Assembly: GCF_988242995.1 (NCBI RefSeq)
Contig: NZ_OZ547043.1
Length of the DNA: 64,000 bases
Reading direction: 5' to 3' (one strand)
The position numbers were made by a program. This document shows positions 12,001 to 18,000 of this stretch, in pieces (position 1 is the stretch's first letter; every line of letters starts with the position of its first letter).

Positions 12001-15000
12001 CTGCGGTAATCGCGTGAGGATCATTTTGTCGCTCGTCTTTACCAAACAGCGCCACTTCATCGCCATAATATTGTTCATAGACCAGCTTGCCGCCCAGCTG
12101 CGGCCAGGCCGGTAACCAGCCTTCGGCGCGAAGATCCCAACCGTTCGCCGGACGTGCTTCATAGTCATTGTCGAGTTCCGGTGCACTACGCCAGTTACTG
12201 AGGCGCAGATAACCGTTGCCGCTCAGTTTCAGGTAATCGCGCCAGTATTCAACGCCCATCCCGGTTCGGGTGTGATAGCGGGTCAGGTCATGATCGATAA
12301 ACATATTGACGCCAGACATCCAGCTCGATGTGAAATAACGCCAGCCGATACCGTGGTTGGTTTGAGTGCGATCATCCGTACGGTGAAGTGTGTGCTGGCT
12401 GAAGACCAGGTTATCCGGCGTTTCGTACCAGGGATGGAGAAATTCAAATGACGAGCTTTTAAGGCTGAAATCTTCATCCACACCAAGAGATACCCGGGCA
12501 GTTCCCCAACGACTGAGCCAGTCCGTTGCCTGCGCAGAGGCAGAAGAAGCCACCCAGCCACGCGCCATACTCGCCGCCTGTTCGCTGTCCATATCGCGAG
12601 CTAAAAGTGTTCCGCTTTGCTGCGCCATTTCCGCGACCTGCATTTGCGGATCTTTGCCGTCGCGCTCCATCTGCATTGCTTTCAGGTTGCGCGCTTCAGG
12701 GCTGTTACTGTTAATGAGGGGCACATCTATTTCATCGCCCTGACGCACATGGTCAAAGCCCCGCGCAAAGGTACGGAACTGATTCAGGCGACGTAATTCA
12801 TCAACGGTGATACCAAAGCGTGCCGCGACCGTTGGTGGCGATTCCAACGCACCCAGGGTATATGGAATAGTTTTAACGTTCGGCAGGATCAGTGACGCGG
12901 CAGTATCCGAGTGCGCAGGATTAATATGCGTAGGGGCAGCAGCCATAACAGGGAAAATAGTTTGTGTTATCAGGCAAATACCTGCGGTCAGACGACGTAA
13001 ACGATCCCCCAATCCACATATGGTGTTATCGCCCCGACGATCGCCATTCCCATGCGCTTTCCCTGCCATTTGTCATCCCTGTCGCTATGCGTTCAGATTA
13101 AATGACCTTTCTTTAACATGAGAGAAAATGATGATTCATGATTAGCAAATGATGAATACAGGCGGAATAATGGAAATAACAACAAGATAAGAACAATACC
13201 TGATCAAGGATTATCAGGAGGAAGAACAAGAGAGCTTCCCGCCAGAGCAGTAACCCCTCCTGTAAATACGTTACTTCATTTTCACCTTTGCGGTGACCAA
13301 TAACGCCGTCAGCAACATCAATGTGCCGGACAACATCAACGGCGAAGTCAGACCAATATTATCCAGCGCATAACCGCCGATTGCCGCGCCACAGGTATTA
13401 GCAAGCTGAATAACCGCCACCTGAATAGACCCGGCTTTTTCTGCCTGATCGGCCAGTGAGCGGGTGATCCACGTTGACCAGCCGACAGGAACCAATGCAA
13501 AAGTTAGCCCCCAGATAATCGCCACGCCGGTAGCAACGATTTTATCGCTTCCCCACAACGTCAGCACCAACGCACTCACTGCCAGTATTAACGGCGCGCC
13601 CGCTAAGGCCAGTTTTACCGAACGTTTAAGAATGAACGACGAAAGCGACGTACCAATAAAGCTGGCGATACCAAAACTCAACAGCACCAGCGTTAAGCCA
13701 TCCACGCCGAATCCCGCCAGGTTCATATACACCGGGCGAATATACGTGAAGAAAGCAAACTGCCCGGCGAAAGACATGAAGATGGCGATCATCCCTGCCA
13801 TCACACCCGGACGTTGTAATAAGCGGAAAGTATTTTGTTTCTGATGCGAGGGTTCGCCTGGCAGCGAAGGCAATGATTTGATAATCCAGAAAATACACAG
13901 CACGCCCATCACCGCCGCCGCATTAAAGACATTGCGCCAACCGATAAGCTCGCCTAAAAAACTGCCCAACGGTGCGGCAATCACCAGCGCAATAGAAACC
14001 GCGCCGAAGATCACCGACAGCGCCTTCGGCACCGTACGCGGCGGCACCAGACGCATGGTCAGCGACGCCGACATCGCCCAGAACCCGCCCAGCGCCAGTC
14101 CCAGACAGGCACGACCGATTAAAAGCAAACTGAATGAGTTAGCAAAGGAAACCAGCAAGCAGGAGAGCGTCAGCAAAACGGCAAACAAAATAACAACGTA
14201 GCGGCGGTCAGTGGCCTGAATTGTCTGGGTAATAAACAAACTGGCAAACATTGCCACAAAGGCGGTCACGGTCACCGATTGCCCGGCAACCCCTTCCGAA
14301 ATGCCTAAATCCTGGGCCATTGGCGTCAACAAACTGACAGGCAAAAACTCAACGATAATCAGACAGGCGACGCAAAACGCCACCGAGAAAACGGCTGACC
14401 AGTTCGGTCGGGTGATGGCATCCGCGCCGCGGTTTTCGGCAATAAATTCACTCATGGTGTTACCCGTGGCATGTTTCAGGGGAAAAGCCGACCACTTTAA
14501 CATTGAAATGTGTGACGCATTTAACGTTTTTGCAACTTTTACGGTGTTGTGGGAAAAGTTCGAGGCTGCTCGAAGAAATAAAAATCATAGGGCAAGGTGA
14601 TATGCATTTTCGCGATTAGGTTGGGAATAAGGGATAAAGTATTGCACTTGGTGATATACTTTAATAACAGGACCTCAACGATATGCGCGTGTTTAAAACC
14701 AAATGGTTTGCAAGTGAAGCCAGGTCTCATGCAATAACAGATGAAGAGTTGTGCCGGGCCATTTTAGAAACAGAACAAGGTAAAGCTGATGCACTTGGCG
14801 GTGGCGTTTTTAAAAAGCGCCTTCACCAAAATCGTGAGCGTGCAATTATTCTGGCGAAAGGGGGAAGCAATTGGTTTTACACGTTTTTATATGCAAAACA
14901 GGATATGTCGAACATCAATAGTCAGGAACTGGCTGGGTTTCGTGAAATTGCAAAGCATTATGCCTTCCTGACGAAAGCCCAACTAACAGCAATGATTAAC

Positions 15001-18000
15001 ACTAAAGAACTGACAGAGATCTGCTATGACTGCAAAAACTAAATTTAAAAGTCCTGCATTTGAGGCTATTCACAGCGCAGCGGCTGGATTGTCCAGCGTC
15101 AATGCTATTTCTGCTGAAACGATGCGTACTTTTGACAAAGCCTGCCTGACCAGCGTGCAAGACTTACAACCTGTTGAGATAAAAGCACTGCGGGAAAAAT
15201 TAAAAGTGAGTCAGCCCGTCTTCGCTCACTATCTCAATACCAGCGTTTCAACTGTACAAAAATGGGAAAGTGGCGCTAAACGCCCCAATGGCATTTCATT
15301 AAAACTGCTCAGCATTGTGCAAAAACACGGGTTGGAGGTGCTGCTGTAAATAGAACGTAGATAATGCGTTCACCTACTGTCAGTTCCGATACCGGATGCG
15401 GCGTGAACGCCTTATCCACCCTACAGGTCAGGCGCGGTCTGTAGGCTGATAAGACGAAGCGGTTTTAATGCAGCCAGTGAACGCCCTCGGCAGGCTGAAA
15501 GAACGCGTTATAGCGCATCTGAAAAGCATTAATATCCTGCATTTCAGGTTCGGTTTCGCGCAGAAAACCCAGCGCCAGCCTGACCTGAGCATCGGTAATG
15601 GGAGCGGCAAGGCGGGCTTTTTGTAAAATCCGATGCCATTGCAGCAGGTTCTGTTCGCTACCATCGACAATGACAATTTGCCAGATGAGCAACACCTGCG
15701 CGGCGTTTTGCAGGTGCGACTCATCCGGGCGATGCAAATAACGTAAAAATTCGTCACCGGCTGACTTTCCCATTTGATCGACCATCGACTCCACGGGTAC
15801 GACATCGATATTCAGCCGATCGCTGAGACGGCGAATCGCTTTTCTGGCCCCGGATGTCAGCACCCGAAAACCAACCACAAACACTACCGCCAGCGTGGCG
15901 AGCATTATCCAGATCATGAGTTCTCCTGCGTAATCAGAACTCATGATATCTGGAAACCCTCGCCAGTTACTAATCCACCAGAATAATCTTCAGTGCAAAC
16001 AGAGCTGCGACCACCACCACACACAGGTTCAGATCGCGCCAGCGCCCGGTGCATACTTTCATGATGCAGTACGACATAAAGCCAAGTGCAATCCCTTCGG
16101 TGATCGAGAAAGTAAAGGGCATCATCACCGTGGTAATAAACGCAGGCACCGATTCGGTAAAATCATCCCAGTTAACGCGCGCCAGACTTGAGGTCATCAG
16201 CACGCCAACAAAGATTAACGCTCCGGCGGTTGCGTAAGGAGGAACCATCGCCACCAGCGGTGAGAAGAACATAACCAACAGGAACATAACGCCGACCACA
16301 ACCGCAGTCAGCCCCGTGCGACCACCGACTGCCACACCAGAAGTACTTTCAATATAGGCGGTAACAGACGAGGTGCCGATAAACGCGCCCGCCACCGAAC
16401 TGACGCTATCAACATACAGCGCCTTATTCATATTCGGGAATTTACCGTTACTATCTATTAAGCCAGCTTTATCAGTTACACCAATTAATGTTCCTGATGA
16501 ATCAAATAGGTTGATCAGCATAAAGGAGAAAATGATACCGGCGAGTTCAAGTGTTAACGCGCCGCTCAAATCTACTTCACCAATGACGCCGCTAATATCA
16601 GGCGGAATGGAATAGATGCCGCTAAAATGAACATCACCGAAAAATAATCCACAGCAAGACGTCACCACAATAGAAACAAGCACCGCGGCATGAAAATGAC
16701 GTGATGACAACACGGTTATAATAAAAAACCCTAAAATACCTAACAACACGCCGTGAGAACTTAAATCGCCAATCATCACCAGGGTGTCTTTATTGGCGAC
16801 AATAACGCCAGTATTTTTTAATCCCATTAAGGCGATAAATAATCCGATTCCGCTGGTGATACCAATACGTAAACTTAATGGAATGTTGGAGATCATCCAG
16901 TACCGGATACGAAATAGCGTGAGCAAAAATAGCCCAATTGCGCCCCAGAATATCGCGCCCATCCCGGTCTGCCAGGAGATACCCATCGCCCCCACGACCA
17001 CGAACGCAAAGAAGGCGTTCAGCCCCATTGCCGGAGCCAGCGCCACGGGTAAGTTAGCAAATATCCCCATCGCAATACTGCCGATACCGGCAATCAAACA
17101 GGTGGTAACAAACACCACTTTCGGGTCCATTTGTGCCGCGCCGAGGATTTGCGGGTTCACAAAAACGATGTACACCATGGTTAAAAAAGTGGTCATCCCC
17201 GCAATCAATTCTGTGCGGACGGTGGTCCCATGCTGAGGTAGTTTAAATAATCGCGAAAGCGTCCCTGATTCATTACTCACGTAATCGGTATTGTCATTAT
17301 TCATTTTTTTGTCCATTGGAGGAGATTTAATCCCTTGCTTTTGTAAAACAAATGACAACAACGGTTCAGTGATAATTATCACATTTCAATTGCACATTAA
17401 TGGATATTCTTTAATAATCTCGCGACGTTTCTTTATGATAAATAATAATCAAATTGATAAAATCAAAATGAGAAAAATATGAATAATTCTATTAACCATA
17501 AATTTCATCACATTAGCCGGGCGGAATACCAGGAATTGTTAGCCGTTTCCCGTGGCGACGCTGTTGCCGATTATATTATTGATAATGTCTCTATTCTCGA
17601 CCTGATCAATGGCGGAGAAATTTCCGGCCCAATTGTGATTAAAGGGCGTTACATTGCCGGTGTTGGCGCAGAATACACTGATGCTCCGGCTTTGCAGCGG
17701 ATTGATGCCCACGGCGCAACGGCGGTGCCAGGGTTTATTGATGCTCACCTGCATATTGAATCCAGCATGATGACGCCGGTCACCTTTGAAACCGCCACCC
17801 TGCCGCGCGGCCTGACAACTGTTATTTGCGATCCTCATGAAATCGTCAACGTGATGGGCGAAGCCGGTTTCGCCTGGTTTGCCCGCTGTGCCGAACAGGC
17901 AAGGCAAAACCAGTACTTGCAGGTCAGCTCTTGCGTACCCGCCCTGGAAGGCTGCGATGTTAACGGTGCCAGTTTTACCCTTGAACAGATGCTCGCCTGG

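Follow-up and report, generated by a model that had tools for sequence, protein, structure and literature searches.

The stretch of DNA analyzed here, 64,000 nucleotides of contig NZ_OZ547043.1 (RefSeq assembly GCF_988242995.1) and referred to below as the window, carries a pair of small genes encoding a predicted toxin-antitoxin (TA) module of type II between nepI on the left and yicN on the right, both of which lie on the minus strand. The first gene encodes a RelE-family toxin and the second an antitoxin with a helix-turn-helix (HTH) domain of the XRE type (Table 1). The two open reading frames (ORFs) and their overlap were recovered in the ORF table exactly as given in a preliminary description of the window that had been made by reading the sequence, and the overlap is consistent with translational coupling.

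Table 1. Features of the TA locus and of integrase-linked relatives. Positions refer to the window, except in the last row.
Feature	Position	Strand	Description
Module-specific segment	14550-15389		840 bp; promoter/operator, both genes and left arm of REP hairpin
Imperfect palindrome (candidate operator)	14635-14663		Inverted repeat TAAAGTATTGCAC-TTG-GTGATATACTTTA, 20 bp 5' of toxin ATG
Extended -10 element	14652-14660	+	TGATATACT; right half of palindrome; poor -35
Shine-Dalgarno-like AGGA	14669-14672	+	10 nt 5' of toxin ATG, read from sequence
Toxin gene	14683-15042	+	ATG start, 119 aa; PF06296 "RelE" family (HigB2/ToxP/RelE3 type)
Toxin 3' end/antitoxin start overlap	15026-15042	+	17 bp
Antitoxin gene	15026-15349	+	ATG start, 107 aa; XRE HTH
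REP cluster	15357-15467		Three hairpins (~15360-15416, 15417-15448, 15450-15467) between the convergent antitoxin and yicN genes
Integrase-linked example stretches (other loci)	2109-2987 and 5036-8221 on one locus; 4833-6137 on another		

In RefSeq, where the toxin is named "type II toxin-antitoxin system RelE/ParE family toxin", its start is often placed two codons later, at GTG 14689, giving a protein of 117 aa. Both start forms are present as RefSeq proteins, the exact 119-aa form being WP_096978197.1. Toxin homologues, mostly 119 aa long, have an MR[VI]FKT N-terminus at the matching position, and ACAGGA is kept in the upstream regions of homologous loci. Because of these homologue starts, which recur across genera, and the spacing of the AGGA, the true start is likely to be ATG 14683.

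Toxin and antitoxin proteins

A hidden Markov model search had been proposed in the preliminary description, and in that search both gene products scored above the cut-off. The toxin matched Pfam family PF06296 ("RelE") with 139 bits (cut-off 27, E = 1.1e-40), its residues 1-113 spanning profile positions 1-120; no NCBIfam model matched it. Vibrio cholerae HigB-2 (VcHigB2) is assigned to the same family in the Gerdes 2025 survey (PMC11980606). Its sequence, which matches PDB 5JA9 chain C at 100% identity, scored 34.5 bits on the PF06296 profile, of which it covers positions 8-96 only, out of 120. An AlphaFold model of the toxin made with 32 homologues had a predicted local distance difference test (pLDDT) score of 87 and consists of a strand, two helices, four strands, more helices and a last strand. 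When this model was compared with the PDB by Foldseek, the eight top matches were all VcHigB2 (probability 0.99-1.0), with a template modelling score of about 0.5-0.6 and an identity of about 20%, while later matches included Cami1, Mtb HigB1, YoeB, YafQ and RelE. The model thus gives the toxin a predicted RelE/BECR (Barnase-EndoU-Colicin E5/D-RelE) fold.

In an hhalign comparison, toxin residues R46, R53, Y70 and K72 align with VcHigB2 residues R51, R64, Y82 and K84, substitutions of which reduce activity 170- to 3000-fold (PMC5416850). Across the family, conservation reaches at least 90% at R46, R53 and K72, and a KKR...R...YAK pattern that contains such residues aligns with the Coxiella toxin ToxP by BLAST. 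The four residues are predicted to form the active site.

The antitoxin matched Pfam HTH_3 at residues 52-96 with 33 bits (cut-off 23), and the best match of solved structure is V. cholerae HigA-2 in PDB 5JAA (phmmer E = 8e-10, residues 46-102). Its C-terminal XRE HTH (approximately residues 46-102) is predicted to mediate dimerization and DNA binding, and the N-terminal region (approximately residues 1-45) to bind the toxin. The pair is accordingly organized as the preliminary description had it, a toxin-first type II module with a RelE-fold toxin (by Pfam and Foldseek) and an XRE-HTH antitoxin.

Relatives were collected by scanning one genome per species, which yielded 478 toxin relatives, and gene pairing was counted in the best 80 loci. 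An antitoxin homologue lay directly downstream of the toxin homologue in 80/80 of these, far above chance. Most of the loci also had the 17-bp overlap, which is shared by the majority of Enterobacterales homologues and by some that are more distant. A pair of small neighbouring genes in the same orientation, never found apart, is what is expected of a type II TA system. (The 90%-identity protein cluster that holds the antitoxin also includes toxin sequences of 117 and 119 aa, probably an artefact that the gene overlap causes in the clustering.)

Candidate operator and promoter, and REP elements

The palindrome upstream of the toxin gene has a core of GCAC-N3-GTG at 14644-14653. When the upstream regions of 42 homologous loci were aligned, 37/42 of the loci had this core at a distance of -38 to -41 relative to the toxin ATG, compared to 0.5% of shuffles, and the family consensus of the operator-like motif is TAGCACnnnGTGCTATAgTTA. 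The palindrome is likely to be the operator for the antitoxin, as judged from this conservation. An extended -10 pattern, TGnTAnnnT, was present at -30 to -33 in nearly all homologous loci. The footprinted operator of VcHigA2 is likewise a single inverted repeat across the -10 (PMC11006873). Its layout over the -10 resembles that of the module palindrome, but its sequence is different (TGTACGC-N5-GCGTACA in VcHigBA2, TAGCAC-N3-GTGCTA in the module).

The right half of the candidate operator also recurs as a direct repeat, with GGTGATATGCATT at 14596-14608 and GGTGATATACTTT at 14650-14662, 54 bp apart, and this repeat of the half-site is conserved in Escherichia loci. The upstream copy is situated towards the nepI start, within the segment that is missing from K-12, and might serve as another binding site or belong to the nepI promoter.

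Repetitive extragenic palindromic (REP) elements had been noted directly downstream of the antitoxin gene, and their presence there was borne out by an exact REP core at 15394-15417, for which 0 matches are expected by chance, and by folding of the region 15345-15470 into hairpins at -41 kcal/mol (z = -2.45). Copies of the consensus are paired in inverted orientation and fold into hairpins in the space between the convergent genes, as in REP sequences and bacterial interspersed mosaic elements. Only 15357-15389 of the cluster is specific to the module, and this part includes the left arm of the REP hairpin. The hairpins probably define the 3' end of the mRNA or stabilize and protect it. A minus-strand match to the Rfam family naRNA4 at 15356-15421 scored 32.9 bits, below the gathering score of 59.5. 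naRNA4 is a nucleoid-associated RNA derived from REP325, and the match most likely reflects just the REP hairpin.

The nepI-yicN site across genomes

The module was found in 1716/5426 complete E. coli genomes (32%), always as one chromosomal copy, and the carriers include O157:H7, ST131, strain 042 and avian pathogenic strains. In K-12 MG1655, the spacer between nepI and yicN is 210 bp long and contains no genes. Both the strain-variable character of the module and its absence from K-12, which the preliminary description had put forward, are borne out. BLASTN comparison with a K-12-like locus showed that the common flanks stop at 14549 and start again within the REP cluster, at 15390, and that K-12-type genomes have 41 bp in place of the 840 bp of the module-specific segment. 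We considered whether these 41 bp might be a remnant of the module and rejected it, since the alignment score of 27 was within the range of shuffled sequences (20.6 +/- 2.8, maximum 31). Nearly all of the sampled module-free E. coli genomes (about 68% of complete genomes are module-free overall) share one 162-bp junction. A copy in E. coli HS-02 (stretch 4001-4755) was only 76% identical and had A/G homopolymer runs in all frames; it was set aside, because such homopolymer noise looks like a sequencing or assembly artefact and not like a diverged allele.

The RefSeq start of nepI is near 14455, and the longest nepI ORF (13271-14503) starts 16 codons upstream of it. The module-specific segment begins 47 bp beyond this longer ORF. 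With the segment edge so near to nepI, strains with and without the module do not have the same nepI promoter region.

Two other Escherichia lineages, Citrobacter amalonaticus, five Klebsiella species and one further Enterobacteriaceae genome likewise have the arrangement nepI-module-yicN, and in Salmonella the module adjoins nepI. These nepI-adjacent copies are deeply diverged, with toxin identities of 64-72%. The ratio of nonsynonymous to synonymous substitution rates (dN/dS) between Escherichia lineages was 0.11-0.18 in the toxin gene and 0.07-0.10 in that of the antitoxin, indicating purifying selection on both genes, while synonymous sites were saturated relative to Citrobacter and Klebsiella. 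The window contains no integrase, insertion sequence, flanking direct repeats, target duplication or other mobile-element signature. Because of the nepI-adjacent position across genera, the saturated dS and the missing mobile signature, we interpret the K-12 state as a deletion, and not the carrier state as an insertion. The simplest reading is that the module is an old resident, inherited vertically beside nepI and deleted in lineages including K-12. A neighbour-joining protein tree of the concatenated toxin and antitoxin was star-like, and neither supported nor rejected a single clade of nepI-linked copies; K. indica grouped near the cluster of mobile copies described below.

Decay of the module has affected the toxin while the antitoxin was kept. 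In one E. coli lineage, represented by EC-10 (stretch 1501-2166), the one strain in which toxin decay was checked in detail, the toxin has an ATG to ATA change of the start codon, a stop at W8 and a 1-bp deletion, at positions equivalent to 14685, 14705 and 14998 of the window, and the antitoxin is intact. Among 60 evenly spaced E. coli hits taken from the 1716 carriers, 4 had a shortened alignment like that produced by the EC-10 frameshift. In Mixta, Lonsdalea and Winslowiella, the toxin is truncated and the antitoxin full length. Such inactivation of the toxin with retention of the antitoxin is expected if the toxin is harmful when unopposed.

Other members of the family are mobile. Near-identical copies occur across families, in Pectobacterium, Erwinia, Serratia, Edwardsiella and others, close to an integrase of the Integrase_1 type; in Pectobacterium, Erwinia, Enterobacter and others, the distance to this Integrase_1/Phage_int_SAM_2 integrase is about 1 kb. 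In addition, 174 plasmid records, for the most part of alpha-proteobacteria and Coxiella, contain homologues. The family thus has mobile as well as long-settled branches. This mobility, together with the restriction of the module to 32% of complete E. coli genomes and its absence from K-12, would fit a recent arrival of the module by horizontal insertion between nepI and yicN in some E. coli strains, which is the direction implied when the preliminary description called the module "inserted" at this site. We consider such an insertion very improbable and the implied direction wrong: copies as divergent as described above sit at the nepI-adjacent site of Escherichia lineages, Salmonella, Citrobacter and Klebsiella, the E. 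coli module is always single and chromosomal and lacks any trace of a mobile element in the window, and nearly all sampled module-free genomes have the same junction allele.

What else lies beside the integrase-linked copies differs between loci. Among these neighbours are an HD-CE/HATPase protein and a SIR2-like protein, a setting that points to a mobile island carrying defence-like genes. RelE/ParE toxins have also been discussed as defence toxins (PMC11980606), and the main role of the module might accordingly be anti-phage defence by abortive infection, and not stress response or addiction. This seems to us rather unlikely for the E. coli copy, which is flanked by housekeeping transport genes and no defence island; PADLOC, moreover, had no match to the toxin and only generic HTH hits to the antitoxin. 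A defence role is nevertheless compatible with the mechanism proposed below, since it concerns what the module is for and not how it works.

Proposed mechanism and relation to known systems

Taken as a whole, the module is very probably an autoregulated operon of the HigBA2 type, encoding a ribosome-dependent, mRNA-cleaving toxin, which is an old neighbour of nepI and was deleted in K-12 lineages. Transcription would probably start from the extended -10 promoter within the palindromic operator. By homology, the product of the first gene, the 119-aa RelE-fold toxin, would enter the ribosomal A site and cleave the mRNA under translation using R46, R53, Y70 and K72. Again by homology, the second gene would supply the 107-aa antitoxin, the N-terminal part of which would wrap the toxin, neutralizing it, while a dimer of its C-terminal XRE HTH domain would bind the operator and repress the operon. 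If the antitoxin were lost, the free toxin would stop translation and growth. The system is of a known kind and is already annotated as such, and its orthologues have been tested in part.

The closest characterized relative is relBE3ST of Salmonella Typhimurium (relE3, STM3777/SL3743; relB3, STM3778/SL3744), a positional orthologue that adjoins nepI. Both modules are 667 bp long with a 17-bp overlap, the toxins are 68% and the antitoxins about 80% identical, and the motif GTGCTATAC is found upstream of relBE3ST in a published cloning primer. The right flank, in contrast, is a phosphotransferase system/aldolase cluster in Salmonella and yicN in E. coli. STM3777-STM3778 is equated with relE3/relB3, with a module length of 667 bp, in the supplement of Lobato-Marquez et al. 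2015, and RelE3 was validated there as a growth-inhibiting toxin that lowers culturability upon expression (PMC4366850). (A retracted study, De la Cruz 2013, also includes STM3777-78 and was used as a pointer only.) Calling the module relBE misleads, since it has neither the gene order nor the type of antitoxin of K-12 relBE.

ToxP/AntitoxP of the Coxiella burnetii QpH1 plasmid (CBUA0028/CBUA0027) is also toxin-first. ToxP is 30% identical to the toxin over its full length (E = 3e-17), with a C-terminal extension in both, and AntitoxP is 55% identical to the antitoxin across 104 aa, including the N-terminus. ToxP stops translation in a cell-free system, and AntitoxP was shown to bind the toxin as well as the promoter, which it represses (PMC10098735). 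The Coxiella pair differs in being plasmid-borne, where it acts as a plasmid addiction system, unlike the chromosomal E. coli module, and in its annotation ToxP is extended by 30 aa at the N-terminus and has a basic loop longer than that of the E. coli toxin.

VcHigB-2/HigA-2 (PDB 5JAA, 5JA8/9, 8A0X) is the best structural match and, like the module, is toxin-first with a PF06296 toxin, the active-site residues of which are retained in the E. coli protein. VcHigA-2 has an N-terminal neutralizing region and a C-terminal XRE HTH, as predicted for the antitoxin. Ribosome-dependent cleavage of mRNA or inhibition of translation has been shown for VcHigB2 (PMC5416850). With about 20% identity, VcHigB2 has a longer basic loop between strands and does not have the C-terminal helix and strand of the E. 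coli toxin; the VcHigBA2 module resides in a superintegron, whereas the E. coli module is at a conserved core-genome site.

Other families were considered and rejected. The term HigB/HigA-like in the preliminary description needs correcting in that the toxin, a PF06296 member, does not belong with the HigB-HigA systems of Rts1 and K-12: it had no match to PF05015 or PF09907 at E <= 0.1. These systems, and SehAB, share with the module a toxin-first order, a toxin of the RelE superfamily and an HTH antitoxin, but belong to other Pfam families and have larger antitoxins. SehAB was also rejected as the Salmonella orthologue, which is STM3777-78: its antitoxin gene is approximately 429 nt and the order of elements in SehA, described as three helices, three strands and a fourth helix (PMC12817084), is different. 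Membership in the K-12 RelBE family is contradicted by the toxin-first order, the HTH antitoxin and the missing PF05016 match. K-12 RelBE is antitoxin-first, with a ribbon-helix-helix RelB and a PF05016 toxin. The antitoxin was likewise not assigned to MqsRA, as it matched MqsA_antitoxin (26.1 bits, cut-off 30) and TIGR03830 (41 bits, cut-off 61.8) below threshold and with the HTH part only, whereas MqsA has an N-terminal zinc-binding CxxC domain. Matches to the NadS model were also below the cut-off and restricted to the HTH part. The identity of WP_032269392.1, listed as "HigB2 from E. coli APEC179" (PMC11980606), with the present locus could not be confirmed.

Several results weigh against the HigBA2-type operon proposed here. 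Searches of the PDB with the toxin, by phmmer and with a profile, gave no match, VcHigB2 included; the connection to VcHigB2 was obtained via Pfam, the fold search and hhalign only, and the hhalign comparison amounts to a weak sequence-level link (E = 0.0024, probability 12%). Of the predicted active-site residues, position 70 is Y or F, and often F among homologues. The C-terminal helix and strand of the toxin (approximately residues 96-115), with a conserved E-I-C motif, have no VcHigB2 counterpart and are outside all solved structures. SehA, from a different family of the RelE superfamily, was reported to be without RNase activity and to inhibit RNase III (PMC12817084), so that the chemistry of the toxin is to be tested and not assumed. 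In a toxin-linker-antitoxin model, antitoxin residues ~6-36 had pLDDT values of 87-94, consistent with folding onto the toxin, but the contacts were not readable. In a two-plasmid assay, Salmonella RelB3 failed to neutralize RelE3 (PMC4366850). A strict two-hexamer scan found no canonical sigma-70 promoter, and the promoter call is thus inferred from the conserved extended -10; a scan of the locus for intrinsic terminators found none. Neither E. albertii nor E. fergusonii contributed, through its representative genome, to the best 80 loci, which requires the assumption of more than one loss or of recombination between relatives. Finally, in the literature library that was searched, no study of this E. 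coli locus turned up.

Some of the same observations would fit a domesticated or non-canonical module, the toxin of which has given up ribosomal mRNA cleavage for another target, perhaps via its C-terminal helix and strand, or which acts mainly as a transcription regulator of, for example, nepI. A long stay at one chromosomal site under purifying selection is unusual for selfish TA modules, and the link to nepI persists in Salmonella, where the other flank differs. The second right half-site GGTGATATGCATT, on the nepI side of the palindrome, the extension that VcHigB2 lacks, the precedent of SehA and the failure of RelB3 point in the same direction. We nonetheless judge such a module unlikely: all four catalytic residues of HigB2 are kept, Salmonella RelE3 is toxic, Coxiella ToxP inhibits translation despite having the same C-terminal extension, and decay that starts with the toxin and spares the antitoxin implies that the unopposed toxin is harmful. 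nepI, which is divergent from the module, encodes a purine-nucleoside exporter. A more specific form of the proposal, that the nepI-linked lineage is no selfish addiction module but a domesticated core-genome element about as old as the Enterobacteriaceae, in which the antitoxin controls nepI or the toxin C-terminus serves a non-canonical target or self-regulation, appears to us a long shot; if true, however, loss of the module would have changed nepI regulation in K-12.

For the HigBA2-type module, which remains the preferred interpretation, the loss from K-12 matters because E. coli TA biology is largely based on that strain. The site offers a clean natural presence/absence polymorphism, with K-12 as a ready module-free host, and the long residence on the nepI side, the purifying selection and the toxin-first decay make it a useful case for why chromosomal TA modules persist. 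The core PF06296 family with the C-terminal extension has no solved structure. What is mainly gained here is the recognition of a loss from K-12 instead of a gain elsewhere, the conserved operator-like motif, the toxin-first decay and the structurally uncharacterized C-terminal extension.

The wider neighbourhood of the module is also variable. Directly left of nepI, on the minus strand, is iatC (1940-13069 of the window), which encodes an inverse autotransporter adhesin of 3709 aa with many near-identical repeat units; in K-12 and O157:H7, yicS occupies this place instead. The exchange of iatC and yicS is a second presence/absence polymorphism beside nepI, independent of the TA module. To the right, yicN is followed by adeQ and adeD, and adeQ, the second gene right of the module, has a frameshift in the annotation of O157:H7 TW14359 (locus stretch 3788-5121).

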